Sequence record: KC295538
DNA from: Escherichia phage PBECO4
Reading direction: 5' to 3' (one strand)
Length of the DNA stretch: 64,000 nt
Position 1 is the stretch's first letter; each line of letters opens with the position of its first letter. Below are positions 3,690 through 34,680 of this stretch, in pieces. The notes beneath the pieces were generated by a model, which saw nothing but the letters and a program-made list of their open reading frames with translations, did not search any database and was not told the origin of the DNA. The position numbers were made by a program, and so were the translations under genes.

Positions 3690-3883
3690 AGTTTACTCGT
3701 TATATCTTCAATTAAATACCAAATCCAATCGTTGACATACCTTTCCTGAAAGTTAGTTCCAATGAATAGTGCCATAATTAATTCACGCTTATAGGCAATA
3801 CCACGGTCATGGGACTTATACATTATCATAGCCATGTTATTGATAAGTCTTTCGTGGTGCTGTTCTTTAGTTAAAATACGCAT
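3686..3883 (-). CDS. small protein, family A paralog (first gene of array)
   Basis: MRILTKEQHHER.. and FIGTNFQ motif. Confidence 0.6.
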   Translation of the reverse strand: MRILTKEQHHERLINNMAMIMYKSHDRGIAYKRELIMALFIGTNFQERYVNDWIWYLIEDITSKL

Positions 3884-3969
3884 AGGATAAAATCCATAGG
3901 TTCATATGTGAAAAAACATCATACCCCATGTGAGGCATGATGTCAAGATGTTTTGTTCATATAAATGCA

Positions 3970-4335: not shown

Positions 4336-4618
4336 AGTTCGGTGACCTCTAAAGTTGAGTTAATGTAACTAACATATAAAATATGAATGAAATATAATAT
4401 AGACTATATATTATCAGAATTATATAAAAAGTCAAGCCCCTATCACTCCTTTTTTCGAAGTCGCTAAGGTTACCCGCCCTTTAGCCCCCTACGCATTTTG
4501 CCATAGTCCAATCCCTTTTATTTCAAAAAAGTCAAGGGATTACCTATGCATTTTTTTAACGCATAATTTTAAAAACGCCTTGACTTTTTTCTGAATCAGT
4601 ACTAGATCCCTTTACGCA
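4336..4618. promoter_or_regulatory. AT-rich intergenic region with three TTGACT boxes, two in inverted orientation; probable promoter region for leftward operon
   Basis: aaaaagtcaag at ~4427 and ~4524, inverted copy ccttgactttttt at ~4587; no ORF. Confidence 0.35.
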
Positions 4619-4828
4619 TTAATCCTTCGTTACGCTAACGATTATCTGTGTATCCCCGTAGTCCTGCCATACTTCCACGCCATCGGTCGCCCTGGTTAGT
4701 CGTGCTGTCATCTGCTTAATGGTCTTAGGCTTTAGTGGAACCTGTTGCAGTACTGTACGCATAGCATCATTGACGTTATCATGTACGCCTGCAATAGTAC
4801 CTAGAACGCTGTATACTGTATAGAACAT
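4619..4828 (-). CDS. hypothetical protein
   Basis: Track ORF. Confidence 0.5.
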   Translation of the reverse strand: MFYTVYSVLGTIAGVHDNVNDAMRTVLQQVPLKPKTIKQMTARLTRATDGVEVWQDYGDTQIIVSVTKD

Positions 4829-4896
4829 ATGTATGTACTCCTGATATAGTTAAGGCCGCTACAAGGCGGCCTATGATGTTTGGTGATGTGTAACGC

Positions 4897-5298
4897 TTAC
4901 AGTCCTAAGATAGTGCGTGCTTCGTTACGTTCCGTACACAGCTGCATGATGTGAGCAAGTAAGTCCTTGCTAATGTATCCGTTGTCCATAGCTTCACGGA
5001 TAGATACATCATAAGCACCGAACCCCGTGCGAACGATACGCACATCATTCAGGTTAGTATTATAGATACCGCCGAGATCAACGGCTTCGAATACTACATC
5101 AACAGAATATTCATTGTTGCCATCGTGGAAGTTTTCCAGTGCAATAGTATTGGATACCGCCCAACGTTTGCAGTTTCCAATGATGCGGCACTGTTCCGGT
5201 TGGATAGTGCCATTACTTACAGCGTACTCCAGTGCATCTTTACCGAAAGTCCGAGCCAGTACTAAAACGTCAGCGAAGGAATTGATTGAGAAGGTCAT
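4897..5298 (-). CDS. hypothetical protein
   Basis: Track ORF 4897..5331 trimmed to ATG 5298 (MTFSINSF..) with AAGGAG 8 nt upstream; promoter+hairpin upstream. Confidence 0.65.
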   Translation of the reverse strand: MTFSINSFADVLVLARTFGKDALEYAVSNGTIQPEQCRIIGNCKRWAVSNTIALENFHDGNNEYSVDVVFEAVDLGGIYNTNLNDVRIVRTGFGAYDVSIREAMDNGYISKDLLAHIMQLCTERNEARTILGL

Positions 5299-5387
5299 GA
5301 TAAAACTCCTTAATTTAGGAGGGAGAACCATTTCCCCCTCTCTATGTAAAACATTATACTTGATTCTAAGTACTATGCAAGTACTTT
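5299..5387 (-). promoter_or_regulatory. sigma70-like promoter (TTGCAT-N16-TATAAT) + 5' UTR hairpin
   Basis: Minus strand reads ttgcatagtacttagaatcaagtataat then hairpin gagggggaaatggttctccctc then SD. Confidence 0.6.
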
Positions 5388-5720
5388 TTACATTTTAATT
5401 CCTGGATTCAGGTAACGGTGAGATCCATATTCTGGATAGGTTTCGTTCCAGTACTGTAAATCGATAGTACCTTTCGCGTTAATCTTGTCTACCAGCTTAT
5501 TCATCTTAGCGTATACTACGTCAGCATCGATGCGTTTAAAGCCAGTAGCTTTAGTGAAGTAGTAGTGATTTGCTTCACTATCATTAAGGATATACCGAGC
5601 ACCGTTTGCAGTCTGTGCGATAATGATTGAGTATTCTACTTCCCGATCCAGACCGTCGATGAATACAGATGAAACATTGGTACGGATGAAAGCTTTAACG
5701 ATAGCGATTGAAGTACTCAT
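5388..5720 (-). CDS. hypothetical protein
   Basis: Track ORF; own promoter upstream. Confidence 0.6.
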   Translation of the reverse strand: MSTSIAIVKAFIRTNVSSVFIDGLDREVEYSIIIAQTANGARYILNDSEANHYYFTKATGFKRIDADVVYAKMNKLVDKINAKGTIDLQYWNETYPEYGSHRYLNPGIKM

Positions 5721-5923
5721 TTTGAATCTCCTAACTTTGTGGGCCGTCGCACCATTGCCGCCCTACGAGATACATTATTGCAGTACTGATATACTTTGTC
5801 AATACTTTTTTATTAATAGTTTTAGTTCCACCAGCAGATAGTTACTCACCGTTATTAACTATATATTTTGGATACACTTATGCACCCTGTGGGCTGATTT
5901 GTTTCTATGCGTATATAATAGCA

Positions 5924-5951
5924 AAGGGACTGACCGGAGTCAATCCCTTTT
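5924..5951. terminator. TTGACT-containing hairpin flanked by A-run and T-run (bidirectional terminator-like, copy 1 of 12)
   Basis: aaagggactgaccggagtcaatcccttttt; same element recurs 11 more times. Confidence 0.5.
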
Positions 5952-5964
5952 TTATTCTTTTTTG

Positions 5965-6165
5965 TTAGATGATTCTCCAATCATCAACGATCATGGTAAG
6001 ATACCGAACCAGTGATTCGAGTGATTCGTGTTCTCGATAGTCTGCCGCACCGCCAGCGGTACAAGTACAGCCGATTAAGCCGTTTTGCAATTCCTTAATC
6101 TGTACATCGATAAGGTTGGCTTTAGCTTCTTTCAGTACTTCAACCAGGGCGAGAGCGATAGACAT
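5965..6165 (-). CDS. hypothetical protein
   Basis: Track ORF; promoter+hairpin at 6166..6255. Confidence 0.6.
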   Translation of the reverse strand: MSIALALVEVLKEAKANLIDVQIKELQNGLIGCTCTAGGAADYREHESLESLVRYLTMIVDDWRII

Positions 6166-6255
6166 AATGTTTTACTCCAAACTATTGGCGGGAGAACTAT
6201 TCCCCCGCTCTATGTAAAACATTATACATTACTGGTTAGTACTGTCAAATAGTTT
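6166..6255 (-). promoter_or_regulatory. sigma70-like promoter + 5' UTR hairpin
   Basis: tgtcaa/attata on + strand (TTGACA/TATAAT on minus), hairpin gcgggagaactattcccccgc. Confidence 0.6.
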
Positions 6256-6513
6256 TTATGAAATATCTTCGATGTAGTCGGCCCATTTCATTTTTTCAGT
6301 ACTGTCAATGGCTACCGGATTATTTGGATCAAACCATTCACCATTACCGCAATACATACCAACGGCTACGGTTTTATAGCCATCCTGGGCCGTACACCAC
6401 GACATTGCACGATAGATATGGCCTTTAACTGGTTGCAGTACTGGTAACGTTTTATGGTCTTCTACGTAGGCCATAGCTTGAGGATTTACCCGATATTGTG
6501 TGAATTGTTCCAT
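6256..6513 (-). CDS. hypothetical protein
   Basis: Track ORF; TTGACA-N17-TGTAAT upstream (6514..6589). Confidence 0.6.
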   Translation of the reverse strand: MEQFTQYRVNPQAMAYVEDHKTLPVLQPVKGHIYRAMSWCTAQDGYKTVAVGMYCGNGEWFDPNNPVAIDSTEKMKWADYIEDIS

Positions 6514-6589
6514 TATGTTTCCCCTTGTAGTTAGTAAAGTTATTACATCAGTACTATCAAGCTATGTCAATAGTACTGAAATAAAACTT

Positions 6590-6814
6590 TTAGATTAGAT
6601 TATTGAGGCCGTCAATGGTAGACTCACTTTCTTCTTTCTCCCATTGTCGGTAGTACTTCCATGCTTCATGATAGGTGGCGATTAGTTCATCTTTTTGATC
6701 CTGGTTACATGCCAGTACTGAATCACGGTGAGCGGTGTTATAGATAGAATCGAATGATTTCTTCTCTTCTGCCAGGTTAGCTACTTCCCGCATCAGTTCA
6801 TCAAAGTTAGCCAT
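6590..6814 (-). CDS. hypothetical protein
   Basis: Track ORF; own promoter+hairpin. Confidence 0.6.
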   Translation of the reverse strand: MANFDELMREVANLAEEKKSFDSIYNTAHRDSVLACNQDQKDELIATYHEAWKYYRQWEKEESESTIDGLNNLI

Positions 6815-6881
6815 TTTATTACTCCTTTTAGTGGGGGAGGATATCTCCCCCTATGCAAAACATTATACTTTGTTTTAGTTA
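6815..6881 (-). promoter_or_regulatory. sigma70-like promoter + 5' UTR hairpin
   Basis: hairpin gggggaggatatctccccc; atgcaaaacattatac motif. Confidence 0.55.
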
Positions 6882-7145
6882 TTATGCAAGTACTTTTTTC
6901 ATATAAACATTAAATTCTACACCGCCGTAACCTTCCACGATGATATGTTTTGCGTTATCACGTTTGCACATAGTGAAACCATCGTTTACGTGTTTTGCAT
7001 TTTCCAGGGCGACATCACCGATAGCGGCACATACAGCACTAATAACGATATTCCGCAAAGTACTGGTATCATTAGCGGTCATAGTAGTTTGCATGATTAC
7101 GTTGTCGTATACGTGTGCATTGATAGTGATTTCGATAGTGTTCAT
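6882..7145 (-). CDS. hypothetical protein
   Basis: Track ORF. Confidence 0.6.
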   Translation of the reverse strand: MNTIEITINAHVYDNVIMQTTMTANDTSTLRNIVISAVCAAIGDVALENAKHVNDGFTMCKRDNAKHIIVEGYGGVEFNVYMKKVLA

Positions 7146-7231
7146 GGTGTATCTCCTGGACTGGCGGGAGAACTATTCCCCCGCTCTATGTAAAACATTA
7201 TACGTTAATCTAACTACAATGCAAGTACTTT
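7146..7231 (-). promoter_or_regulatory. sigma70-like promoter + 5' UTR hairpin
   Basis: hairpin gcgggagaactattcccccgc; atgtaaaacattatac. Confidence 0.55.
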
Positions 7232-7423
7232 TTAAATTTTATTTCCGATATAGTCTGGCCTGTTCTTTTCGGTCATACGCTTAAGCATTTTTTGCATATG
7301 GCTTATTGCTTGTAGTGTATCCTCTTCCAGGGATGAATCGAGATAATCAGGATCATTCTTCACCTTGCAATGATTATGATAGCGTAGTACTGCCAGTACT
7401 TTTTTAACTTCTTCAACTGTCAT
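7232..7423 (-). CDS. hypothetical protein
   Basis: Track ORF; overlaps upstream gene by 4 nt. Confidence 0.55.
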   Translation of the reverse strand: MTVEEVKKVLAVLRYHNHCKVKNDPDYLDSSLEEDTLQAISHMQKMLKRMTEKNRPDYIGNKI

Positions 7424-7692
7424 AATAAGTACTCCACTTCGTTAGCTTTCAGGTTAGTATCAATCATCAATGGTTTTTTGTAGTTCACAAAACGATTAGT
7501 TTTTTCGATAGCGAATCCCATATAATCCAGCTTACTAACAGTACATTCATTCTTAAAAACTTCTTTCGCTGCATCGATGGCTGATTGCATGGATAACCGA
7601 CCATCTAAATTAATGTTTCCAAATGATCCACCAGCAGAAGTAGGATTACCGTTCATATCTTTAATGATCATAGTAGCGGAGTAGCTGGACAT
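7420..7692 (-). CDS. hypothetical protein
   Basis: Track ORF; promoter+hairpin at 7693..7776. Confidence 0.6.
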   Translation of the reverse strand: MSSYSATMIIKDMNGNPTSAGGSFGNINLDGRLSMQSAIDAAKEVFKNECTVSKLDYMGFAIEKTNRFVNYKKPLMIDTNLKANEVEYLL

Positions 7693-7776
7693 AATTTTGT
7701 TTCCTTTTAGTATCGGGGAGAACTATTCTCCCCTTGATGTAAACTATTATACAGTACTAATATACTTTGTCAATAC
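7693..7776 (-). promoter_or_regulatory. consensus sigma70-like promoter + 5' UTR hairpin
   Basis: Minus strand TTGACA (7773..7768), 16-nt spacer ending AGTACTG, TATAAT (7751..7746); hairpin ggggagaa-cta-ttctcccc 7714..7733. Confidence 0.65.
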
Positions 7777-7998
7777 TTAATTACGTTTAAAATGATATGT
7801 GCCTTTATCATCCTGTACGCCCCATACTGATTTACCATCAACACCAGTGAAGCCGGATTGTAATTCAATATGGAAACCATTATTATCAACTACAAAAACT
7901 TTTTTATTTTCATCCCGATAACATTGATATTCTGAATCAACATTAAAGGCCGCATCATTCAGAAGATTGGAAGCGTAAATGCAAGTCATTGTAGTCAT
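7777..7998 (-). CDS. hypothetical protein
   Basis: Track ORF 7777..8073 trimmed to ATG 7998 (MTTMTCIY..) with AAGGA SD; extension is translated promoter/hairpin. Confidence 0.6.
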   Translation of the reverse strand: MTTMTCIYASNLLNDAAFNVDSEYQCYRDENKKVFVVDNNGFHIELQSGFTGVDGKSVWGVQDDKGTYHFKRN

Positions 7999-8179
7999 GA
8001 TTTTATTCCTTATTGCCAGGGAGAACCGTTTCCCCCTCTCGATATAAAACATTATACTTGATTCTAAGTACAATGCAAGTACTTTTTTAAAATAGTTTTC
8101 AGTACTGAATACTTATATAATAGATACACTTCCGCACCCTATGGGTCAGTGAGTTATCTCTCAATGAATATATAATAGC

Positions 8180-8210
8180 AAAGGGACTGACCGGAGTCAA
8201 TCCCTTTTTT
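8180..8210. terminator. TTGACT-containing hairpin element (copy 2)
   Basis: aagggactgaccggagtcaatccctttttt. Confidence 0.5.
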
Positions 8211-8218
8211 AATCTTTT

Positions 8219-8803
8219 TTATCGTGTTATAGTTACGGCTTTTACATCACGCTTTTTATAGTACTGATTCCAGATATTGCGGGTTAAACCGTAATCAAGT
8301 ACTTTAATAAGGCCGTTGCGATCCTGGCCGATATTCTGTTTTCTGATATCTCTTATCGTTAGTGTTGACAGTGTATCATCAACGTGTTGTAGTGCATCAG
8401 CAAAGCGGTGCTGGCGTTCAATAGCATTACGTTTAATATTGTACTTTAATTCGTTGCACGCGTTAACGTGCTTCACACTGCCTTTACTTGCAGTACTCAA
8501 CCGATCCATAACAATAAACATATTATCAGGATCGCTTAAATGCATATGCACTTTAGCGAAGAACTGTTTCAACTGAGGGCGGTCATAGTCTAAAAAATTC
8601 CATACCCTACATTCTGTTTCATTTTGTTCTACACCCGCATCACAATTCGCGACCTTGATCACTAACCGATCATTTAAAGCGAAAACTATACGGGAAGAAC
8701 CCGCACCGATGATCTCCAGACCAGCTAACCGACAAGCTGAAAGGATCTCTTTGTTGGTTTCCATTGCTGACAGGGTACGGATGAATTTAGTATAATTACG
8801 CAT
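8219..8803 (-). CDS. protein kinase-like protein (Hanks-type fold)
   Basis: IGAGSSRIVF glycine loop, VIKV lysine, IRDIRKQNIG catalytic-loop-like, LDYG (DFG-like); start trimmed to ATG 8803 with AAGGAG. Confidence 0.55.
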   Translation of the reverse strand: MRNYTKFIRTLSAMETNKEILSACRLAGLEIIGAGSSRIVFALNDRLVIKVANCDAGVEQNETECRVWNFLDYDRPQLKQFFAKVHMHLSDPDNMFIVMDRLSTASKGSVKHVNACNELKYNIKRNAIERQHRFADALQHVDDTLSTLTIRDIRKQNIGQDRNGLIKVLDYGLTRNIWNQYYKKRDVKAVTITR

Positions 8804-8834
8804 TGCATGTTCTCCTTGAGTTAATGAAACTATC

Positions 8835-9134
8835 TTACAGTACTTTACTATCAATGGCAACTACTTTTTTTACACTAACCGCGTGAATCACTTCCTTAGT
8901 GTTTTTAGTACTGAATACTTTCGCCGTGCCTTGTTCTACTGCAATACGATAACGACCGTTAACATCAACCATATTAATAAAGTCCGGTGTACTAAACCGA
9001 GTAGTTTTACATTTCAGTACTGTTAACAGTTCCACCAGCGATGTGGTTTCTTTGATACGTTTTTCTAAAGTAATCATTTTGTTTTCCCCGTGTTGGTATG
9101 TACATATAGTACTAAAACATTTGAGTACTGTCAA
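8835..9134 (-). CDS. hypothetical protein
   Basis: Track ORF. Confidence 0.55.
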   Translation of the reverse strand: MTVLKCFSTICTYQHGENKMITLEKRIKETTSLVELLTVLKCKTTRFSTPDFINMVDVNGRYRIAVEQGTAKVFSTKNTKEVIHAVSVKKVVAIDSKVL

Positions 9135-9385
9135 CGTGATATTAGTTTTATTTTCTTATTATATTGTTGATGTTCATAAAGGTTTATCTTTCCTGTGTTC
9201 TCTATTACTATTCTGTTGTTAGTGTCTACATCGATTACACGCAGTTTTCCGTTGCTTAACTTCCTTGGTAATAGGTTACCATTAATAAACTCATTAGCAA
9301 GCTGTACGGCCTTTGTGATGATTCTCTGAGGTGCTTTATAGTGTACCCGCAAGATATTATCTTTAGATAGTTGTACCTTAATCAT
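9131..9385 (-). CDS. hypothetical protein
   Basis: Track ORF; 4-nt overlap with downstream gene. Confidence 0.55.
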   Translation of the reverse strand: MIKVQLSKDNILRVHYKAPQRIITKAVQLANEFINGNLLPRKLSNGKLRVIDVDTNNRIVIENTGKINLYEHQQYNKKIKLISR

Positions 9386-9400
9386 TTTAGTTTATCCTAT

Positions 9401-9425
9401 AAAAAAGGCGGGAACTGATCCCGCC
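9401..9425 (-). terminator. rho-independent terminator (minus strand)
   Basis: ggcgggaactgatcccgcc hairpin preceded on + by AAAAAA (U-run on minus), just 3' of gene 9448..9843. Confidence 0.6.
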
Positions 9426-9447
9426 GTGTTGTTAGTACTGCAAGTTA

Positions 9448-9843
9448 TTAGATAACCTGTCGGCGTTTACTATATACTGTTACACGATTACCCTTACGGT
9501 CGTGTCGGATCTCTTTCTGGTTGCGTACCAGTTCACTTGGACGCTTCAGGTTTGCCAGGTGATCCGCGTGAGTCCAAGCGGTATGGTTTGTCTGTACTTT
9601 GATATCAGAATCAGCGATAAACTCATCTTGTGCATCAAGTATTGACGCCAGTAAATCCGCTCGTTTTAGTTCTGCTGCTGTTAGTACTGGCTCCGGTGAA
9701 TTCACAATATCAGAGATCTCTTTGAACTGTACGGCCCAGCGTTGACCTTTCGGTGCATCTTTGCCCATGTCTTTAAATGTTTCGCCTTCCTCGCGTGCAA
9801 CAATACGGGCAGCTTCACGGGTAGCGTAGAATTTAGTAATCAT
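9448..9843 (-). CDS. hypothetical protein, paralog of 22341..22607
   Basis: Shared FATRE.ARI.AR..G.TFKDMG and DRKGNRVTVY segments. Confidence 0.6.
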   Translation of the reverse strand: MITKFYATREAARIVAREEGETFKDMGKDAPKGQRWAVQFKEISDIVNSPEPVLTAAELKRADLLASILDAQDEFIADSDIKVQTNHTAWTHADHLANLKRPSELVRNQKEIRHDRKGNRVTVYSKRRQVI

Positions 9844-9938
9844 GGTATACATCCTATTAGTTGAGTTAGTACTACAAGTTAGAGTCTATTATAAAGTACT
9901 ATCTGGGCAATGTCAAATAGTACTTTAAATGGATTCTA

Positions 9939-10262
9939 TTACATGTCTTTCTTACGTTTTACATCGTGGTAGCGAACTGTTATTTCTTTGTTGATCTCTT
10001 CCTCGATGCGGTGAATAACTGTTTCTTTCGGGTTGAAACCTATAACGGTTTCTTTAATGATCTCCAAGCCCGTGTATTCTCCTTGTGTACCGTAACCGTA
10101 AGTAAAGGTTTCATGTCCCAGGTCTTCCCAGCGGTCGCCAATTAACGCGGACACGTAGCAAGAGTGGTAAGTGTTACCGTTCCGATCAGTCCAGCGATTA
10201 ACTTTAATGTCAAAGGAGGTTACAATTTTCAGTTCTACTTTCTGGGTAAGGATCATAGCCAT
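9939..10262 (-). CDS. hypothetical protein, paralog of 16709..17032
   Basis: Shared RWTD..GNTYHSC.VS, FTYGY, C-terminal DVKRKKD. Confidence 0.6.
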   Translation of the reverse strand: MAMILTQKVELKIVTSFDIKVNRWTDRNGNTYHSCYVSALIGDRWEDLGHETFTYGYGTQGEYTGLEIIKETVIGFNPKETVIHRIEEEINKEITVRYHDVKRKKDM

Positions 10263-10352
10263 TTTTATTTCTCTCTCTCTTTGTTAGGAGGGGAACCGTT
10301 TCCCCTCGCTTGATGTAAACTATTATACAGTACTAAGATACTTTGTCAATAC
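10263..10352 (-). promoter_or_regulatory. sigma70-like promoter + 5' UTR hairpin
   Basis: tgtcaa/attata on +; hairpin gaggggaaccgtttcccctc. Confidence 0.6.
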
Positions 10353-10535
10353 TTATTTTTTGGAAAGTTTACGCATTAATTCTACGCTTTCTTGTGAACG
10401 TTTTGCTACCTGGCAATCTGTATGGGTAGTAAACATTTTTGTATAGTCTGACGGTTTGCCACCGAACCGAGCGGCACGCTCACGGGCACTTGGAACTAAT
10501 ACGATTTCTTTCTTACAGATAGTGCACTTAGCCAT
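10353..10535 (-). CDS. small Cys-containing protein (possible zinc ribbon)
   Basis: CTICKK...HTDC in 60 aa; own promoter+hairpin. Confidence 0.5.
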   Translation of the reverse strand: MAKCTICKKEIVLVPSARERAARFGGKPSDYTKMFTTHTDCQVAKRSQESVELMRKLSKK

Positions 10536-23710: not shown

Positions 23711-23800
23711 CGTTTTAATCTCTCTTAAAGTGTAGCGGGAACACTTCCCGCTCTCGATGTAAAACATTATACGCTTTTATCAGTACGGTGCAAGTACTTT
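23711..23800 (-). promoter_or_regulatory. sigma70-like promoter + 5' UTR hairpin (last unit before noncoding hub)
   Basis: gcgggaacacttcccgc hairpin. Confidence 0.55.
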
Positions 23801-23825
23801 CTACAAATACTTTTAAAATAGTTTT

Positions 23826-23917
23826 CTTTCTATATAGGAGTACTATTATTCAGTACTGAATCAATCCAGGGGAACTATCTTTCTATATAGGAGTACTATT
23901 ATTCAGTACTGAATCAA
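23826..23917. repeat. 39-bp direct repeat x2
   Basis: ctttctatataggagtactattattcagtactgaatcaa at 23826..23864 and 23879..23917. Confidence 0.7.
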
Positions 23918-24069
23918 CCAAATCACTACTACACCCCATAAAACGGCCTCAGACGCATTCTAACGCATTAATACACCTAAGCTATACATTTGCACCACTC
24001 CCAACAATCCAGGGCGTTACGGGCCGTTTAAACGCGTTAAATTATTTTCAATTATTTTGTTTTTAGGTA

Positions 24070-24097
24070 TTGACTTGATCCTGAAAAAGCGTATAAT
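24070..24097 (+). promoter_or_regulatory. + strand promoter (TTGACT-N16-TATAAT)
   Basis: ttgact 24070..24075, tataat 24092..24097; downstream gggtgcgg ... ccgcaccc long-range inverted repeat. Confidence 0.45.
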
Positions 24098-24284
24098 TAC
24101 TACATAGACGCGAGAAAGCGGAAACCCCAGAGGGTGCGGAATTACGCCCAAAATTCAAGATATAAAAAAAGGATACACTCCCGCACCCTAGCAGGTAAAC
24201 GCACTTTCTCAGTACTGAATTATAGTACCATAGTCCGGCCCAGGATGGCAAGCAAATTAATTAAAACTTTTTTCATCCAGGGTA

Positions 24285-24312
24285 TTGCTTTATTTTTCCA
24301 GTACTGTATAAT
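24285..24312 (+). promoter_or_regulatory. + strand promoter with TTGCTTTA box upstream of TATAAT (resembles a T4 MotA-box middle promoter)
   Basis: tattgctttat 24283..24293, tataat 24307..24312; downstream cccaccgggtgc box. Confidence 0.35.
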
Positions 24313-24533
24313 AGTTCCATCAAGTCGAGAAAGACTCAAGCCCACCGGGTGCATAGTTACGCCCAAAATTCAGTACTGAAAAAATTTTTAAAAATATCCG
24401 TCCAGGCCGTTGACATTGCCCCCAGTTTATAAGATAATGATTCCAGATTCAGAAAAATCTAACTCCAGATACTGCGGGGAAACTATCCCCACGCGGTAGG
24501 GGAACTATTGGAAAAAACAAAATAAAATTTTGA

Positions 24534-24680
24534 TTTAGCCGTCTATACTTCCAGACGTGTAACCATCTAGCCGTTTAGCCGTCCAAACGTCTAGCCATCC
24601 AGCCATCCAGAAATCTAGCCGTTTAGCCGTCTAGATGGATAGCCATCTTTACTTCCAGACTTCTGGAGGGCTAGACATAT
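24534..24680. repeat. iteron-like cluster of ~8 short direct repeats (TAGCCGT/TAGCCAT) flanked by tacttccagac repeats
   Basis: ctagccgtttagccgtc, ctagccatccagccatccag, ctagccgtttagccgtctag; tacttccagac at ~24546 and ~24651. Confidence 0.6.
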
Positions 24681-25705
24681 CTACGTCCAAAATCCACCCA
24701 GGGTAACTACGCCCAAAATCCGTCAGTACTATACCATAGATCTATCTTTTGAAAGGGAGTATTCAGTACTGCCACAATAGCCCTCACTATGTTACCCTAG
24801 GAGGATGAAGACTATCATGTAGTACTGAATACTGTTAGAGGGAATCCACCAGCTTGTGCTGGTGGCATAATGCTTTAGATTAAAATCAGTACTGACACCA
24901 TTCTGTTAATATCAGTACTGTTATTACGATTTTCATATGAGGTTCAAAAAGATGTACCACCACAGGAGGAACTATCTTTTCTGTACTGTCTCACGACAGG
25001 AGGTAGAGTAAATGAATTGTTCGCAGCAACTCATCACCCTATGTAGAACATTATACAGTACTGAATCATAATGTCAATAGCTTTCTTTCATTATTCAGTA
25101 CTGATATTCTTGAGAACTACCCGACTACAAACATCATTATATCCCACAAATCATAAACGTCCCAACGTAAATTTCAACTTTCGAAGATCCAACTTTTATT
25201 TCATAGGTACTCCAAAATTTTTAGGATCGAGATTTAGGATGGAGTACTAACCAACTTTTTGCTGGAGCCTCAAGGGGTAATGGAATTTTACCCCGAAGGG
25301 TAAAGGGGTAATTGAAATTAAGGTGAAAGTAATAATTCAGTACTAATCATTGCGTGATTACTTTTGATTACATTTGATGTAATTTGAAAAATGGAAAAGG
25401 AGCTTGGAAACTACAAAGTACGGCAGACTTCCTCTGCCTACTTAGTGGCATATCAGTACTGAATCCTTCCCGTGCATTCTTGAGCATTCTTGTCTATACT
25501 AATCAGTACTGAATCATATATAATCATTCTGTGATTCTACGGTGCTCATATAAATGTTTATATATGATTACTTATGACTACCTATGATTACGGGGTTTAG
25601 CCTGGGGAGAATCCTAGTGATCGCATTTGTCCAGGCTGAATTTTAACAATTCGCCTGTACATAAAGGTTGTTCACTAGGAGCTTCCCCTGTCTACTTGTG
25701 TTTAA

Positions 25706-25897
25706 TTACTTCCTATATATAAGCATTAAGATATAGTAGTACTGATTATACTGTACATTCTCTTTAATATTATAAGGGTCTATAGCAATCTCGGTACATC
25801 TGTTAAATGCATATCTATTAAATGCCAGTGGAATTATAGATCTAATCCATACTTGTTCATTTTCTTTTAGTTTACTTATATAGAAGTTTTTATACAT
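25706..25897 (-). CDS. small protein, family B tandem paralog
   Basis: ~60 aa; N-term M.KEFY-like, C-term hydrophobic ..LIYRK; one of ~17 tandem copies. Confidence 0.55.
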   Translation of the reverse strand: MYKNFYISKLKENEQVWIRSIIPLAFNRYAFNRCTEIAIDPYNIKENVQYNQYYYILMLIYRK

Positions 25898-25912
25898 AGT
25901 ATTCTCTATTAA

Positions 25913-26095
25913 TTAATATGATAGTACTAGTGTTAGTACTGAGCACAATTGTTCTTTGTAGTTCTTAGGGTATATAGAATCTTTTATGCACTCATTGAAG
26001 TGCCATAGGTATAATCTTGGGTCGCATTCTTTATATATTCTTACGGGGACGAATGTTAGTTTTCGTATATAGAATTCTTTATGTTCTTTATTCAT
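25913..26095 (-). CDS. small protein, family B paralog
   Basis: MNKEHKEFYIRKL.. Confidence 0.55.
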   Translation of the reverse strand: MNKEHKEFYIRKLTFVPVRIYKECDPRLYLWHFNECIKDSIYPKNYKEQLCSVLTLVLSY

Positions 26096-26096
26096 A

Positions 26097-26285
26097 TTAG
26101 TACCTGAATATAAGTAGGATTATGTTATAGTACTGGTTAGTACTGCAATGATTCTCTATACATCGATTAACAGTTATGGAATAGCTATATCTGGCGTAAG
26201 CATTATCCAGCGGGATTTTACATTGAGCACTTAGAGAAAGTACAGTAGGTAGTGTATTCAAATAGAAGTCTTTGTAATTATTCAT
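26097..26285 (-). CDS. small protein, family B paralog
   Basis: MNNYKDFYLNTL.. ..LLIFRY. Confidence 0.55.
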   Translation of the reverse strand: MNNYKDFYLNTLPTVLSLSAQCKIPLDNAYARYSYSITVNRCIENHCSTNQYYNIILLIFRY

Positions 26286-26487
26286 ACAGGAATAGTATAC
26301 CTATGATACCTGAGTACAGGTTAGTACTGTTACCATCTTCGTTTGCGTTTAAAGTCATTTGAATACAATTATTGTAGCATACTCTGCCGAAAAATGTATT
26401 AGTACTTAAAGGTGGAGTAGTCCTTAGAAACATTTGTTCTGAGGGGCTTATGTATTTGGAGTAGAATTCTTTATGTTCTTTATTCAT
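26278..26487 (-). CDS. small protein, family B paralog
   Basis: MNKEHKEFYSKYISPSEQ.. ; near-duplicate of 29118..29327. Confidence 0.55.
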   Translation of the reverse strand: MNKEHKEFYSKYISPSEQMFLRTTPPLSTNTFFGRVCYNNCIQMTLNANEDGNSTNLYSGIIGILFLYE

Positions 26488-26492
26488 ATTAG

Positions 26493-26678
26493 TTAGTGTC
26501 TGTATATAAGTAATAGTAAGAATACGTACTGCACATCTTCATCTTTAGTATTGAGTACTGTACGTATTGCGTCATTAAACAAGAATATAGTACTTGGGTC
26601 ATGAAAATTTAAAGGGGTTCTGGGTACGGCATGTTTGTAGTTCCCTTTAACAAATTGTGTGTAGTATTCTCTATGCAT
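26493..26678 (-). CDS. small protein, family B paralog
   Basis: MHREYYTQF.. ..LLLIYRH. Confidence 0.55.
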   Translation of the reverse strand: MHREYYTQFVKGNYKHAVPRTPLNFHDPSTIFLFNDAIRTVLNTKDEDVQYVFLLLLIYRH

Positions 26679-26679
26679 A

Positions 26680-26865
26680 TTAGTACCTATATATTAGGGC
26701 GAGAATGTAGTACAATTCATATGGAATGTAATTTGGGGTGATCGCACACTGTGTATGGTAAATGAATTGTTCGGTATTTTTCTTATCCTTGATATCTATT
26801 GGGATTTGTGGTATAAGCATTTTGGAGTTTAGATCGAGATGGCTTAAGTAGAATTCTTTATGCAT
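26680..26865 (-). CDS. small protein, family B paralog
   Basis: MHKEFYLSHL.. ..LALIYRY. Confidence 0.55.
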   Translation of the reverse strand: MHKEFYLSHLDLNSKMLIPQIPIDIKDKKNTEQFIYHTQCAITPNYIPYELYYILALIYRY

Positions 26866-26874
26866 ATTGTTCTC

Positions 26875-27063
26875 TTAGAATACGAAAGCTAGGTACAGGG
26901 TATGATACAGTACTCGATGATAGCTGTCAAAATCTAGTATACATGCTTTAGTGCACATAGTAAAGTACACTTTATCGTTTTGTGCATTGATACCGCGAGG
27001 TTTATCTAATAGATTAGTTCTGAGGTACATTGGGAAATATTTTGTGTAGTATTCTTTATGCAT
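26875..27063 (-). CDS. small protein, family B paralog
   Basis: Trimmed to MHKEYYTKYF.. Confidence 0.5.
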   Translation of the reverse strand: MHKEYYTKYFPMYLRTNLLDKPRGINAQNDKVYFTMCTKACILDFDSYHRVLYHTLYLAFVF

Positions 27064-27064
27064 A

Positions 27065-27247
27065 TTAGTACCTGAATATAAGTAGGATAGTGTTATATAG
27101 CTGGTCATAACTACTACTATTTTCTATACTTCGTTCTATGCAGTTATTGAATCCCAGTACTGCCAAATCGTTATCCAGGGGGACTTTGTATCTGGTGTAG
27201 TGTTCAAAAATGCTGGGGAGAAATTGTGTGTAGTATTCTTTGTGCAT
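27065..27247 (-). CDS. small protein, family B paralog
   Basis: MHKEYYTQFL.. ..LLIFRY. Confidence 0.55.
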   Translation of the reverse strand: MHKEYYTQFLPSIFEHYTRYKVPLDNDLAVLGFNNCIERSIENSSSYDQLYNTILLIFRY

Positions 27248-27248
27248 A

Positions 27249-27434
27249 TTAGTACTTATATATTAGTAAAAGGATGTGATACAGTACTCGATTATAGTCT
27301 TCAATATATATCGAGGATTTAGTGCACTGAATGAAGTAGTCTTTTTCGTAGTTTTTTTCTATACCCAATGCAACGTTTGGTACAAGGTGTTGGAGATACA
27401 TTGGGAGTTTCTCTATGTAGTATTCTTTATACAT
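27249..27434 (-). CDS. small protein, family B paralog
   Basis: MYKEYYIEKL.. ..LLIYKY. Confidence 0.55.
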   Translation of the reverse strand: MYKEYYIEKLPMYLQHLVPNVALGIEKNYEKDYFIQCTKSSIYIEDYNRVLYHILLLIYKY

Positions 27435-29756: not shown

Positions 29757-29858
29757 GTGTAGTTCTCCTTATATTCCTTCTATAGTACACCAGTACTGAA
29801 AGGATGTCAAGGGTTTTCTTTATGGGGTAAATATGATATAATGAATAAGGAGGGAAAT
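29757..29858. promoter_or_regulatory. divergent promoter region between family B array (minus) and RCC1-like array (plus)
   Basis: Minus: ttgacatcctttcagtactggtgtactat; plus: gatataatg + aaggaggg SD before ATG 29859. Confidence 0.5.
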
Positions 29859-31061
29859 ATGTTACCTTTTGGAAGAATGGTTAAGTACGCAAATATTGCA
29901 CCAGGTCCAGAACCTGTAGAGTTCTCAGATGTTTTACAACAACATTATACAAACTGTATGTATCTACATAACCCAACTAATACTTTATATGGTTATGGTA
30001 GTAATAACATGTATCAATTTGGTCTTGGGAATTCAGCAGCAGTTTCGTCATTTACAGTACTTGCAAGGAACTGTGCAGCCTTTTGGCTTGGTGTTCAAGG
30101 TTCGTTGATGATTGATTTGGATAATAAAATATACTACACTGGGTCTGTGGCTGCATTTTCTGATTATGGAGATGCAACACCTGTTAATGGTTATTTGACA
30201 ACATGGACTGATGTTACTGTTGCATTTAATAAAATAGGTGTTATGGCTAATATGATCAAGAGTGTATATATAGGTGAAAGTACTAGAATATTATTAACCG
30301 ATGGTAGAGTAATTGCGTGTGGAAGAAATACCAATGGTGAATGTGGCTCTGGTAATAAAAATTCCATCCCTACACTCACAGTTATGACTAATATGGGTGA
30401 AGTTACACATATGGCATGTTCATTACAAGGAACGCACTATATCAAATCAAATAAAGATGCATGGTTTTGTGGTAAGGATAACTTTGGTGAAAGTGGATGT
30501 GGTGGTAGTTCTGTTGTATATTTGAACAAATTCGTGATTAGTAATGTAGAACATATTAGTACTACATACGATGTTACTTGGTGGTTTACTACTGGTGGGT
30601 CTGTATATTATAGCGGGGCTAACAGTACTGGACAAGCGGGTAATGGTACGACTACATCGGTAAATCAGCTAACACCAATTAGGAACACATCGGTCACGGT
30701 TGATGTAAGTAAGTACAGTACTTTTATTTGTCCAAGTAATATGGGAAATGCATCAATTGGTGCACCTATGGCACAATACGCACCATATGTTAGAAGTAGT
30801 GGTGCTAACTCATATGGTCAAGAAGGTAATGGAACTAATACATTAGTTAGAACTTGGAATATTTTTAATCTTAGTGCAATAAGTGGTGGTTATGAAAATG
30901 TTCTTATGGCATCTAAAGATTGGAGCAGAACCATAATAATTACTAAAGATTATAAATTATATGCATGTGGTGGCTGGAATGGAAATGGTGGTAGATTGCC
31001 AGATGGCACTTATAGTATTACTACACTAACATTAATGCCAACGCAGTTATGGCAACAATAG
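29859..31061 (+). CDS. RCC1-like repeat beta-propeller protein, paralog 1
   Basis: Starts MLPFGRMVKYANIAPGP after AAGGAGGG SD; repeated G.N..GQ.G-type motifs (YQFGLGN, TGQAGNGTT, YGQEGNGTN). Confidence 0.7.
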   Translation: MLPFGRMVKYANIAPGPEPVEFSDVLQQHYTNCMYLHNPTNTLYGYGSNNMYQFGLGNSAAVSSFTVLARNCAAFWLGVQGSLMIDLDNKIYYTGSVAAFSDYGDATPVNGYLTTWTDVTVAFNKIGVMANMIKSVYIGESTRILLTDGRVIACGRNTNGECGSGNKNSIPTLTVMTNMGEVTHMACSLQGTHYIKSNKDAWFCGKDNFGESGCGGSSVVYLNKFVISNVEHISTTYDVTWWFTTGGSVYYSGANSTGQAGNGTTTSVNQLTPIRNTSVTVDVSKYSTFICPSNMGNASIGAPMAQYAPYVRSSGANSYGQEGNGTNTLVRTWNIFNLSAISGGYENVLMASKDWSRTIIITKDYKLYACGGWNGNGGRLPDGTYSITTLTLMPTQLWQQ

Positions 31062-31069
31062 GAGGGAAT

Positions 31070-32179
31070 ATGTTACCTTTTGGAAGAATAATTAGGTATG
31101 GAAATATTGTCCCTGGTCCTAAAAAAATAATTAAAGTTGGTGCTTCTACACAAGGTCAATTCTTATTGACTGATTCACATGATTTATATTACATAGGTAG
31201 AAATCAAGGTGGTGAATCTGGAAATGGTAATACCAACACGGTGTCTTCGTGGACATTAGTAAGTGCAGATGTTTCTAATTTTTTCGTGGGTGATCGTACA
31301 CTTGTTATTATTAAAAATGATAATACTATATGGACATCAGGTCAAACGTACTGGTTCTCATCTTCTACAACTACTTCTTACAGTACTGTATTAGTTGAAA
31401 GGACTAGTTGGTTTACCAATGCTATACCAGTCAGTGAAATTGCTAATATTGTATGCACAAATGGTTTAATATTTGTACTTAGCACTAATTCAGTACTCTA
31501 TGGTGCAGGAGATAATGGATATCGTGGTTCTTTGGGTATTGGTTCATCATCAATTTACACATTAACTCAATGTGCTACGAACGTTCGTAAAGTAATGACC
31601 AATGCGAATGATAGTATGTATCTTACATTAGATAATAAGCTATATAGTTCTGGATGGAATAGTAGTGGGCAGCATGGTACGGGGAACCAAACACAAATTA
31701 ACACTTGGGGATTGCGTAGTTCTGGTGTAATCGATGCAGCCATTGGTGGTAATGCATTAAATTACTATAATGGTACATCATATTTCGTATGTGGTCAAAC
31801 TCCAAACTTTCTTAGTTCAGGTACGACTACATTCCGTGCAGTTCCTTTAAGTACTTTGCCTAATAGTTCTCCGTTGTTTATGACGAATTCACCTGCCTTA
31901 AATACTGCTACACAAATGGTAATTACTAGTACATATCAGAAGGGTGTTGGGGCGAACCGTGGTTTGGGATTAAACAATTCTCAAACTGGTGCTATATATA
32001 GTGCTACCAATTTACAATTACCCGTTGAAGTTAGTGAGATTAGGGATGTTCTTTTTAGTGATGGTTTGACATCGATATTAACCAAAAATGGAGACGTGTA
32101 TAGTACTGGATCGTATTACGCCATTCCAGGTGCAATCGAGGATGTTGCAGTCTTTACTAAAATTGATTTACCAAAATAA
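31070..32179 (+). CDS. RCC1-like repeat beta-propeller protein, paralog 2
   Basis: MLPFGRIIRYGNIVPGP; SGQHGTGN, RGSLGIG motifs; coupled to paralog 1 with no cassette. Confidence 0.7.
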   Translation: MLPFGRIIRYGNIVPGPKKIIKVGASTQGQFLLTDSHDLYYIGRNQGGESGNGNTNTVSSWTLVSADVSNFFVGDRTLVIIKNDNTIWTSGQTYWFSSSTTTSYSTVLVERTSWFTNAIPVSEIANIVCTNGLIFVLSTNSVLYGAGDNGYRGSLGIGSSSIYTLTQCATNVRKVMTNANDSMYLTLDNKLYSSGWNSSGQHGTGNQTQINTWGLRSSGVIDAAIGGNALNYYNGTSYFVCGQTPNFLSSGTTTFRAVPLSTLPNSSPLFMTNSPALNTATQMVITSTYQKGVGANRGLGLNNSQTGAIYSATNLQLPVEVSEIRDVLFSDGLTSILTKNGDVYSTGSYYAIPGAIEDVAVFTKIDLPK

Positions 32180-32185
32180 CATAAT

Positions 32186-32210
32186 GCCAGTACTCTGTAC
32201 TGGCTTTCTT
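32186..32210 (+). terminator. cassette hairpin + T-run (terminator) preceding TATAAC/SD of next paralog
   Basis: gccagtactctgtactggc followed by tttctt. Confidence 0.55.
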
Positions 32211-32249
32211 ATTTGTATTAAATATAGTATAACAAATAAAGGAGGGAAT

Positions 32250-33389
32250 ATGTTACCTTTTGCAAGAATGGTTAAGTACGGGAATATCGCACCTGAACTG
32301 ATTCTACCTAAAAACAGGTTACAATGTTCTGCTGATGCCAAATTTTATTTACACACAAATGGTAATCTATATTGGTTTGGTTCTTCAGCATATGGACAAA
32401 GTGGTAATGGTTCATTGGACTCTTCAACTGAATGGACTCTTGTCAACTCAAATGTTACACGATATTGGGGTGGGGTACAAGGAACAATTGCTATAAAGAA
32501 AGATGGTACTATTTGGTACACTGGTAGACGTACTGTTATTCCAATACTATCTTCAAACACTAACGGCGTTTGGGTTGATATAACACAGAACTTTACTGAT
32601 TTCGGTGTCAGTGCAGATGATATTGATAGTGTTGTGATATCTTCGTGTATGCGTGTATTTTTAAAAAATGGAAAGTGGTTCTACTGTGGTGCTGGTACTG
32701 GTGGTGTTTTTGGGAATGGATCAACTTCAAGCGTTTCACGATTCACCTATAGTACAATAGAAAATGTTATCAGTGCTGGTTGTGCAATATATAGTACTGG
32801 ATTAGTACTAAATGATGGTTCATATTGGTATGCAGGTAGAACGTTTGTATCAGGAACGACGACACAAAACTTGCTCACATTTACACAAGATACTTCGATT
32901 AGTAATGCAATTAAAGCAGTCAATACAAATGAAACTTCTTATATATTTCTTAATGATGGTAATGTTAAAGTTGCATCTATTAACGACTATGGACAAGCAG
33001 GTACAGGAAATAGGTCAGTAGCCCCAATGAGTACATTAATTCCAAATTTATCATTCCAAGGAGAAGTGGAGTTGGTGGGTGAGCTTGGGACAAACCTTAC
33101 CGGACCATCCTGTATAATTAATAATAATAATAAGTTATTTTCATGTGGCCTTAATTCAAATGGTCAATGTGGTATTGGTACAACTGATATGTATATAACA
33201 TCATTCGCTGAAATGGATCTTACTGCATTAGAAGGTAGTAATCTTAGTAGTTTTTGTAAGAGCTATTCTTATACGATGTTAGTTGACGAATATAATAATT
33301 TATACACATGTGGTGTACCCAATCTTACTGGAATGTCTTCAACTACTGTACCAACAAGGGTTCCTGATTCACTTCTACCGTGGAAATAA
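32250..33389 (+). CDS. RCC1-like repeat beta-propeller protein, paralog 3
   Basis: MLPFARMVKYGNIAPE; YGQSGNGS, NDYGQAGTGN, NSNGQCGIGT. Confidence 0.7.
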   Translation: MLPFARMVKYGNIAPELILPKNRLQCSADAKFYLHTNGNLYWFGSSAYGQSGNGSLDSSTEWTLVNSNVTRYWGGVQGTIAIKKDGTIWYTGRRTVIPILSSNTNGVWVDITQNFTDFGVSADDIDSVVISSCMRVFLKNGKWFYCGAGTGGVFGNGSTSSVSRFTYSTIENVISAGCAIYSTGLVLNDGSYWYAGRTFVSGTTTQNLLTFTQDTSISNAIKAVNTNETSYIFLNDGNVKVASINDYGQAGTGNRSVAPMSTLIPNLSFQGEVELVGELGTNLTGPSCIINNNNKLFSCGLNSNGQCGIGTTDMYITSFAEMDLTALEGSNLSSFCKSYSYTMLVDEYNNLYTCGVPNLTGMSSTTVPTRVPDSLLPWK

Positions 33390-33395
33390 TATAAT

Positions 33396-33420
33396 GCCAG
33401 TACACTGTACTGGCTTTCTT
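33396..33420 (+). terminator. cassette hairpin + T-run
   Basis: gccagtacactgtactggc tttctt. Confidence 0.55.
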
Positions 33421-33460
33421 ATTTGTATTAAATATAGTATAATGAATAAAGGAGGGAAAT

Positions 33461-34609
33461 ATGTTACCTTTTGCAAGAATGATGAATTATGGGAATATTG
33501 CCCCTGGTAAGGATAGGCGTTTTAAAATATATTCAAGTGATTCTATGTATCTTCATGATACTTATACTAATAAGTTGTATGCATCTTCTGCGACGAATTG
33601 GGGTACTGGAACAGGTGTAGCATCGAGTAAATTTATTCTTTGTGCGGAGAATGTTAAACGAGTTCTATTGGAAGATAACAGTAGTAGTTGTCAATTGTAT
33701 GAAGAGAAAGGTACTGGAAAAGTTTTTATCACTGGTAACACGAAGGCATTCACTGGTGTAACTGATACAAAAACTTTGTGGACGGACTGTACTACGTGGA
33801 TAACATCAGGTGGTATTAATGTTTCTGATATAAAATACATGAGTAGTTTTAATGATATGAAGGTGAATTTGATAACAAACGATGGTACGTTGTATTGTTG
33901 TGGAGTTAACAATAACTCGAACCTATCATCATTTGGTGATGGTACAAACATTAATTCTTTTAACACATTCAAAAGGGTAGATACTATAACTTCGGTCAAA
34001 AAGGCAGTTGGTAACATATACCTAAAAGAAGATAATACTTTATGGGGTTGTGGTTTTAACTATTACTATCAGTTAGGTACAGGTAATCAAACTTCTATTA
34101 CTGGGGTGACGATGATTTCTTCAGATGTTATAGATTTTGATGTAAGTTATCAGAGTACATTTTTTATTAAATCGGATAATAATTTGTACGCTTGTGGTAA
34201 ACAGTTCGGTGCACAATACGGGAACGAATTTGGCACAGGTGGTACTTCTTCATCTACCGATATACAATACAAAACTCCGACATTATTGAGTTCAGGAGTT
34301 TATACTCTATATACTTGTGTTAGTAACATGGCATCACATATAGTTAAAGGTGATGAAGTTCTATACGCATCTGGGTCGAATGGATTTGGTCAATTAGGTG
34401 TTGGTAATAATATTAATCAGTACTCATATACTCCTTCGTATACTTCGTTTAATAGTTCGTGTAATTTGGTACGCACTCCATCTGGTTCACTTATACTTAC
34501 GGACACTGAGAAATTATATTATTGTGGGTATGCTATGGTAGTAATGGGGGGAATTGCTGGACAAAACATTCTTAGTTATACAGAAGTTGATATGTCATTT
34601 ATACAATGA
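33461..34609 (+). CDS. RCC1-like repeat beta-propeller protein, paralog 4
   Basis: MLPFARMMNYGNIAPGK; YYQLGTGNQ, NGFGQLGVGNN. Confidence 0.7.
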   Translation: MLPFARMMNYGNIAPGKDRRFKIYSSDSMYLHDTYTNKLYASSATNWGTGTGVASSKFILCAENVKRVLLEDNSSSCQLYEEKGTGKVFITGNTKAFTGVTDTKTLWTDCTTWITSGGINVSDIKYMSSFNDMKVNLITNDGTLYCCGVNNNSNLSSFGDGTNINSFNTFKRVDTITSVKKAVGNIYLKEDNTLWGCGFNYYYQLGTGNQTSITGVTMISSDVIDFDVSYQSTFFIKSDNNLYACGKQFGAQYGNEFGTGGTSSSTDIQYKTPTLLSSGVYTLYTCVSNMASHIVKGDEVLYASGSNGFGQLGVGNNINQYSYTPSYTSFNSSCNLVRTPSGSLILTDTEKLYYCGYAMVVMGGIAGQNILSYTEVDMSFIQ

Positions 34610-34615
34610 TTTAAT

Positions 34616-34640
34616 GCCAGTACACTGTACTGGCTTTCTT
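34616..34640 (+). terminator. cassette hairpin + T-run
   Basis: gccagtacactgtactggc tttctt. Confidence 0.55.
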
Positions 34641-34680
34641 ATTTGTATTAAATATAGTATAATGAATAAAGGAGGAATTT

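Follow-up and report, generated by a model that had tools for sequence, protein, structure and literature searches.

The repressor MetJ is a ribbon-helix-helix dimer with SAM as its co-repressor, and it binds DNA cooperatively in such a way that each 8-bp box is occupied by one dimer and neighbouring dimers touch each other (structures 1CMA and 1MJ2). The MetJ operators of the hosts consist of two to five boxes and are typically found within approximately 75 bp of the start codon. ParG of TP228 and omega of pSM19035 occupy 7-12 contiguous units of 7-8 bp, both direct and inverted, with one dimer on each unit, and form a filament on the DNA. Iterons are repeats of approximately 17-22 bp in helical phase, and the origins built on them also have an initiator gene next to them, DnaA boxes and an A/T-rich element for unwinding. 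By the terminal repeat of phage T7 there are short blocks of imperfect direct repeats, SRL and SRR, in which a CCTAAAG-type heptamer is irregularly spaced. The injection stop signal region of phage T5 is Repeat Region 3 of the left terminal repeat (Davison, bioRxiv 10.1101/866236). MetJ is confined to the Enterobacterales, Pasteurellales, Vibrionales, Aeromonadales and Alteromonadales, and it is present in all non-symbiotic Enterobacterales (PMC3228920).

Here we describe an array of 8-bp units in Escherichia phage PBECO4 (record KC295538), of which a stretch of 64 kb, called the window below, was analysed. Judged from the letters and their comparison with known sites, the repeats probably represent operator boxes of the host repressor MetJ (met boxes, consensus AGACGTCT), arranged in a tandem array of great length. 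This reading is founded on the match to the met-box matrix, the phase of the units, the presence of 8-mers identical to those of host operators, the conservation of the array and the host range of the phages carrying it. Similarly to the host met operators (metA, metBL/metJ, metC, metE/metR, metF, metK and metNIQ), the array is made of tandem spacerless 8-bp units with the same consensus, and the T-A (CTAG-type) junction between the boxes is retained. However, it has approximately 16 boxes (up to 28 in phage AhSzq-1), which is far above the host numbers, and it is located in the terminal repeat of a virulent phage and not upstream of a methionine gene. The met-box operator is known as a type of site; the size of the array, its carrier and its position are new. 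Our search for literature connecting MetJ or met boxes with phages or terminal repeats gave no relevant paper, and the array is not mentioned in the parts of the CBB, fEgEco12 and XbC2 genome papers available to us. Provided that MetJ does bind them, these arrays would be larger than any natural MetJ site known so far and would represent an undescribed use of a host metabolic repressor by lytic phages.

An array of 8-bp units in a single phase

The first-pass annotation of the window had pointed out a cluster of about eight TAGCC(G/A)T repeats within 150 bp. The cluster is real: TAGCCRT occurs in seven exact plus-strand copies between 24536 and 24646 (26 in the whole 64-kb window), and Tandem Repeats Finder reports 12.4 copies of period 8 at 24536-24634 with the consensus TAGCCGTC. 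Self-identity of the array reaches 0.56-0.64 at lags 8, 16, 24, 32 and 40 and peaks at multiples of 8 only; it is 0.29-0.35 at lags 4, 12, 20, 28 and 36, and 0.15-0.22 at most other lags. The array also turned out to be longer and more regular than first described. It comprises 18 in-phase met-box-like units without spacers (24537-24680), 16 of which pass the MetJ box threshold (120 bits in total), and its core is formed by 14 consecutive passing boxes (24537-24648; 102.8 bits, 7.3 bits per box). Core boxes 1-7 are, in order, AGCCGTCT ATACTTCC AGACGTGT AACCATCT AGCCGTTT AGCCGTCC AAACGTCT, followed by boxes 8-14, AGCCATCC AGCCATCC AGAAATCT AGCCGTTT AGCCGTCT AGATGGAT AGCCATCT. The in-phase units from 24537 on include AGCCGTCT, AGACGTGT, AAACGTCT, AGCCATCC and AGACTTCT, and the column consensus of all 18 is AGACGTCT, with a tie between A and C at position 3. 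The direct repeat TACTTCCAGAC, which had been thought to bracket the cluster, is no separate element. Its two plus-strand copies, at 24546-24556 (within units 2-3) and 24650-24660 (within units 15-16), are 104 bp or 13 x 8 bp apart and are therefore two in-phase stretches of the array itself.

Boxes were scored with the met-box weight matrix and the thresholds of Augustus and Spicer (PMC3228920, Table 3), according to which a box has to reach a quarter of the consensus score (3.15 bits) and a site the full consensus score (12.58 bits). The passing boxes of the array score 3.8-10.7 bits and the site 102.8-120 bits. A MetJ operator has at least two abutting 8-bp boxes without a spacer; here 14 are consecutive, and 16 of the 18 in-phase units pass. 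The next-longest met-box run in the 64-kb window has two boxes, and shuffled windows gave three at most. The box threshold is passed by only 1.05% of all 65,536 8-mers, and AGCCGTCT ranks within the top 12. When 8-bp arrays of the same size and divergence were simulated from random units, at least 12 of 18 units passed in 0.025% of 40,000 trials and at least 14 of 18 in none. The fit of the array to the MetJ box model exceeds chance by several orders of magnitude. As a positive control, the identical scan recovered the metJ/metB, metF, metE/metR and metA operators of E. coli K-12 at the correct intergenic sites, with 3-4 boxes and 6.2-7.8 bits per box (7.3 in the phage array). No further run of three or more boxes was detected by the matrix scan in the scanned E. 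coli met loci or in the T5 terminal repeat.

In 89 units taken from five Rak2-like phages, the distribution of bases agrees with the natural matrix at seven of the eight positions, minor bases included. Position 2, for instance, is G67/T17/A12 in these units and G67/T11/A19 in the natural matrix, and position 7 is C70/T19/A10 and C67/T19/A11, respectively. The sole departure is position 3, where A47/C49 stands against A87/C10. In the units of Demerecviridae, T at box position 5 amounts to 30%, compared to 4% in host boxes. A related but different binder could be the reason for the surplus of C at position 3 and, in Demerecviridae, of T at position 5. Nevertheless, the box variant with C at position 3 is a natural one, being present in host operators in the part of Table S1 available to us (PMC3228920). 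Examples from it are the E. coli operators of metK (agccatcc-agatgtta-atccatcc) and metR (agccgtcc-agatgttt-acacatcc) and the Yersinia metN operator (agccgtct-agacgcct-taacatcc). In the same part of the table, AGCCGTCT, AGCCATCC, AGCCGTCC, AAACGTCT, AGCCGTTT and AGCCATCT recur as 8-mers in predicted host operators, and AGCCGTCT, AGCCATCC, AAACGTCT, AGCCGTTT, AGCCATCT and AGACTTCT each occur at least 14 to 107 times among the matches listed (PMC3228920).

Surroundings of the array and the genome end

The 2.1 kb around the array are 90-98% identical to approximately 40 records of 121Q/PBECO4/phAPEC6-like jumbo coliphages and Salmonella phages, which represent the genus Asteriusvirus with genomes of approximately 350 kb. 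The array is located in an ORF-free gap of 1.9 kb (23768-25705) flanked by small minus-strand genes, with only ORFs of 44-81 aa, and gene annotation is absent from the gap in the phAPEC6 and G17 records as well. An A/T-rich tract of 27 bp (GGAAAAAACAAAATAAAATTTTGATTT, 24510-24536), read from the sequence, abuts the first box. Neither Rfam at gathering thresholds nor a tRNA scan gave any match in the whole window, no DnaA box was detected between 23000 and 26500, and Pfam assigned no DNA-binding, rep, par or ribbon-helix-helix domain to the ten ORFs flanking the gap.

The physical genome end is found at the hairpin GGCAGActtccTCTGCC (25422-25442, with the hairpin itself at 25422-25438), as position 1 of the vB_Ec-M-J record aligns to 25442. 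Alignment to records with terminal repeats places the direct terminal repeat of approximately 21 kb at about 4468-25442. In the vB_Ec-M-J record it is annotated at 1-21525, and for fEgEco12 the available part of the genome paper gives a terminal repeat of 20,993 bp, verified both with PhageTerm and by restriction digestion (PMC13070987). The records of vB_Ec-M-J, BF17, CRJP21, ELP-22, fEgEco12 and E9.1, which have direct terminal repeats, contain the array sequence twice, approximately 650-1050 bp from the record start. With record position 1 aligned to 25442 and the other boundary at approximately 4468, the array falls within the terminal repeat, at a distance of 762-905 bp from the physical end of the genome. 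A run of two boxes at 3938-3953 was considered as a marker of the other repeat boundary and rejected: the boundary maps to approximately 4468, and the run is treated as chance. The genome end at 25442 is flanked by the short tandem repeats TGATTACATT (3.3 copies, 25355-25387) and TATGATTACC (2.9 copies, 25563-25591), which are candidate terminase recognition elements. A run of minus-strand ORFs of approximately 60 aa just beyond the terminal repeat (25706-27434) resembles a tandem paralogue family, and so do nine consecutive plus-strand ORFs of 358-433 aa at 29841-40876.

A sigma-70-like promoter, TTGACA-17-GATAAT (11/12), was found by the promoter scan at 24410-24438 on the plus strand. It is aimed into the array, with 99 bp between the end of its -10 element and the first box, and a promoter-like site is visible in a similar place in XbC2. 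On the minus strand, a promoter with the perfect sigma-70-like consensus, TTGACA-16-TATAAT (12/12; 25050-25077), is located approximately 370 bp from the genome end and is aimed inward, through the array, at the genes of the terminal repeat. The array itself overlaps no promoter and there is no met gene nearby, so that the overlap with or adjacency to the promoter of a methionine or SAM gene, as in MetJ operators, is not seen here. Immediately 3' of the array, the motif CCACCCAGGGTAAC-TACGCCCAAAATCC-GTCAGTACT occupies 24692-24730 on the plus strand; its paralogues at approximately 24128-24165 and 24341-24378 each lie behind another plus-strand promoter-like site.

Three tandem plus-strand sigma-70-like promoters (24070-24200, 24284-24380 and 24410-24730; two identified by the scan and the middle one by eye) are each followed by a hairpin with a GAGAAAG loop and then by CCCAnnGGGT..TACGCCCAAAATYC..CAGTACTG. 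The first of these units is kept in XbC2 (2255-2315) and, reversed, in fENko-Kae01. The three promoter-hairpin units are candidate small RNA genes, and the met-box array is within the third. The palindrome CAGTACTG has 56 copies in the 64-kb window compared to 0.8 expected. It is densest at 23850-25510, and 11 copies fall in the non-coding gap that surrounds the array and to either side of the genome end. The terminal regions of XbC2 and fENko-Kae01 likewise have frequent palindromes containing AGTACT, and CAGTACTG may be a phage regulatory or promoter element.

Arrays in other phages and in bacteria

Conservation and copy number in relatives had been suggested as a check of the cluster. The array is kept in approximately 40 phage records, and the number of units within the genus Asteriusvirus ranges from 7 to 24: there are 7 in CMSTMSU, 12 in SHEFM2K, 16 in G17, 18 in the PBECO4 window, phAPEC6 and vB_Ec-M-J, 19 in 121Q and 24 in EJP2. 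Without exception, the array lengths within the genus differ by multiples of 8 bp. EJP2 has 70.6% identity over the region, and 21 of its 24 units pass, in a different order. In the other Rak2-like genera, represented by CBB, GAP32, XbC2 and Serratia phage BF, 13-14 of 15-16 units pass. The arrays of CBB and XbC2, for which termini are defined, and of BF, for which the record start was taken as the end, are 648-804 bp from the repeat start. Within one phase, units are found in both orientations (AGCCATCT and AGATGGCT), which fits a two-fold symmetric binder and not slippage of a directional repeat. Across these sequences, phase and box fit, rather than the exact sequence, appear to be the conserved feature. 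Met-box runs of more than two boxes are absent from the terminal repeat of Klebsiella phage fENko-Kae01 and from the left terminal repeat of T5, and the array is thus not universal.

BLAST with the array alone found unrelated phages, whose in-phase runs were then confirmed with the matrix. In the other Rak2-like phages, the Demerecviridae other than T5 and several Autographiviridae, the in-phase arrays have 6-28 boxes. Among the Demerecviridae, there are 28 boxes in Aeromonas phage AhSzq-1, where the array adjoins a DnaA box in a T5-like repeat region, 16 of 17 in Vibrio phage Pontus, also adjoining DnaA boxes, and 9 in pVp-1. Providencia phage PR1 of the same family has 9 nearly canonical boxes (9.8 bits per box) at 9620-9691 of the left terminal repeat (1-10461), that is, 770-841 bp from the repeat boundary. 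The phiKT-like Autographiviridae phage PGT2 has 9 boxes approximately 38-109 bp from the record start, E. coli phage PSK2 has 6 at 9-56 bp, and in Klebsiella phage NNA-G4 (Drulisvirus) 6 boxes extend across the inner edge of a 256-bp repeat, with the first 41 bp of the array falling in the left genome end. In all three phages the array is no more than approximately 110 bp away from the left end of the record, terminal repeats being annotated in NNA-G4 only. Further arrays were found in Pseudoalteromonas phage PH1 (21 of 27 boxes, intergenic) and near the record end of Vibrio phage D164 (19 of 21 boxes). The preferred units vary by lineage (AGCCGTCT, AGACTTCT, GGACGTCT, AGACGTCC, ATACATCT), and all of them fit the met-box matrix. 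Where the termini are known, the arrays are in or near terminal repeats.

The locus shares features with the injection stop region of T5: both are large, untranslated and dense in repeats, and both are within a long terminal repeat, approximately 1 kb or less from its boundary (in PBECO4, the 1.9-kb gap with the array 762-905 bp away). Moreover, the met-box arrays of AhSzq-1, Pontus and PR1 are in the corresponding region, with adjacent DnaA boxes in the first two. However, T5 has no met-box run, and the PBECO4 gap contains no DnaA box, whereas the T5-type signal has paired DnaA boxes along with the IRD'/IRC' and DRD repeats and a DNA transfer in two steps. Rak2-like phages are not known to transfer their DNA in this way. 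The array can also be likened to SRL and SRR of T7, both being short repeat blocks beside or inside a terminal repeat, but the one described here consists of phased 8-bp met boxes.

The hosts of the phages found by BLAST are Escherichia, Salmonella, Erwinia, Serratia, Yersinia, Cronobacter, Pectobacterium, Providencia, Klebsiella, Vibrio, Aeromonas and Pseudoalteromonas. They belong to four of the five MetJ-bearing orders, an argument that counts only approximately 6-8 independent phage lineages, and there is one exception: XbC2 was reported on Xanthomonas vesicatoria, of a genus without MetJ. According to the available part of its description, XbC2 has a G+C content of 37.5%, compared to approximately 65% for the Xanthomonas host, and shares more than 50% similarity with Enterobacterales phages. 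As for PBECO4 itself, its close relatives have E. coli and Salmonella as hosts, and metJ is present in the K-12 sequence, so that the host is expected to encode the repressor.

A degenerate four-box pattern was found at no fewer than 120 loci of many phyla in 185,579 bacterial genomes, mostly as pure repeats of a single unit and in some cases as inverted blocks. As 8-bp repeats with similar units are present in bacteria without MetJ, the 8-bp period alone is not diagnostic of MetJ, and the degenerate four-box scan is useless as a specificity test. Six MAG contigs of Gemmatimonadales, Gemmatimonadaceae and Anaerolineae have intergenic 8-bp tandem blocks with runs of GGACGGCT or GGATGGCT. In at least three of the six, a short spacer and then a reverse-complement run (AGCCGTCC or AGCCATCC) follow, which makes the blocks capable of forming hairpins in bacteria without MetJ. 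Pure 8-bp arrays were also seen at or near the ends of uncultured viral contigs, including IMGVR_UViG_3300008271_000012; among them are AGCCTTCC in 8-9 copies at both ends of one 54-kb contig, GGATGGCT in 8-13 copies and AGATGTCY in 36 copies. Such arrays could belong to terminal repeats in the manner described here, or else mark breakpoints of the assembly.

Possible binders and roles of the array

Several observations speak against MetJ. The share of C at position 3 is 49% compared to 10% in host boxes, the array is away from the promoter of any gene and hence is no classical operator, XbC2 was reported on Xanthomonas, and T5 and fENko-Kae01 do without the array. It is conceivable, if rather unlikely, that another ribbon-helix-helix protein, encoded by the phage or a different one of the host, binds here as in the ParG and omega arrays of type Ib plasmid partition and regulation. 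These arrays follow the same structural logic as MetJ; tandem units of 7-8 bp, both direct and inverted, are the usual targets of ribbon-helix-helix dimers, a slightly different specificity could explain why C is so common at position 3, and bacteria without MetJ have similar 8-bp arrays, some as inverted blocks. The unit length would also suit a type Ib partition site, but the unit sequence differs, no par or ribbon-helix-helix gene is present among the ten flanking ORFs, and the array resembles no plasmid sequence. A tblastn search of the window with E. coli MetJ gave only chance matches (E values of 0.28 or higher), which argues against a MetJ-like protein of the phage. Furthermore, a single protein would be needed by at least three unrelated families sharing almost no genes, and their lineage-specific units converge on the met-box matrix. 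The first-pass annotation had proposed binding sites of an initiator or partition protein; a binding-site array for a DNA-binding protein is indeed the best-supported reading, but iterons of a replication origin or a partition site are highly improbable. A cluster of direct repeats that adjoins a short A/T-rich tract, within a non-coding region of this size, would be in line with them. Nevertheless, the 8-bp units without spacers are far from the iteron size and phasing, the gap has no DnaA boxes and an A/T-rich tract of only 27 bp, no initiator, rep or par gene is among the ten flanking ORFs, and a BLAST search of 72,556 plasmids with the array had no hit. T7-like phages also have a like array, no more than approximately 110 bp from the left end of the record, a place where no origin is known.

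The position raises the question of a terminal element, either independent of proteins or related to the terminase, which would serve concatemer processing or packaging and resemble met boxes by coincidence. The arrays are near the end of the terminal repeat here and in CBB, XbC2, BF and PR1, and within approximately 110 bp of the left record end in PGT2, PSK2 and NNA-G4, and those of AhSzq-1 and Pontus are between direct repeats and DnaA boxes, as in Repeat Region 3 of T5. However, the actual cut is approximately 760 bp off, at a hairpin with GATTAC-type repeats of its own on both sides, T5 and fENko-Kae01 package alike without the array, and the units fit the met-box matrix far better than expected by chance, all of which makes such an element unlikely, although it is compatible with MetJ as a host factor. 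A structured RNA or single-stranded DNA element, in which the near-palindromic units fold into long hairpins, is very unlikely. The folding z-score is -3.7 for the plus strand and -4.4 to -6.6 for the minus strand, the arrays of seven other phages give -2.3 to -6.9, and a promoter-like site is aimed into the array; but any tandem run of near-palindromic boxes folds in this manner. The predicted pairings differ in every phage and the unit numbers vary freely, hence there is no conserved architecture, Rfam gave no match, and the podophage arrays, within approximately 110 bp of the left record end, are upstream of any promoter on the incoming DNA.

Returning to MetJ, approximately 16 host MetJ dimers with SAM would coat about 130 bp of the array as a continuous filament. 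The coated array could then serve in cis as a block or anchor of protein and DNA close to the genome end and might act on DNA entry, end protection, read-through transcription (insulation) or packaging. Such a block or anchor, speculative as it is, seems the most likely role, given that the array overlaps no promoter and that like arrays are at or near the ends of unrelated phages with terminal repeats, including the extreme left end of podophages and the T5-like injection stop region. Titration of MetJ, which would de-repress methionine and SAM synthesis, is less likely: host DNA is degraded early in infection by T5 and, by extension, its relatives, and a single infecting genome would bind only approximately 30 MetJ dimers. 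The idea of MetJ binding predicts phenotypes in metJ deletion hosts and in array deletions, as well as a dependence on SAM. The arrays provide a testable candidate function for the repeat-rich non-coding ends of phages with long terminal repeats, including the T5-type injection stop region, and they would be of use as a sequence marker of terminal repeats in Rak2-like, T5-like and some T7-like genomes.

More generally, we tentatively suggest that virulent terminal-repeat phages of MetJ-bearing gammaproteobacteria might recruit cooperative, metabolite-sensing host repressors to coat the DNA near the genome end, as a plug that would govern entry, end protection or packaging and be coupled to host metabolism. 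Recruitment of this kind at phage genome ends would be new if confirmed. In the place equivalent to that of the array, fENko-Kae01 and T5 have clusters of Fur-box-like sequences, and in AhSzq-1 and Pontus DnaA boxes are added.

The Fur-box-like repeats of fENko-Kae01 are at 700-800 and 1040, with matches of 16/19 to GATAATGATAATCATTATC at 775 and 781. In the injection stop region of T5, four overlapping Fur-box-like matches of 14-16/19 are found within 65 bp (9653-9718). The T5 sequence AATGAGAATCATTAT is what we take to be the core of the aerobactin (iucA) Fur site, and there are 10 Fur-box-like matches in 12 kb of T5, compared to 0.5 in shuffles.
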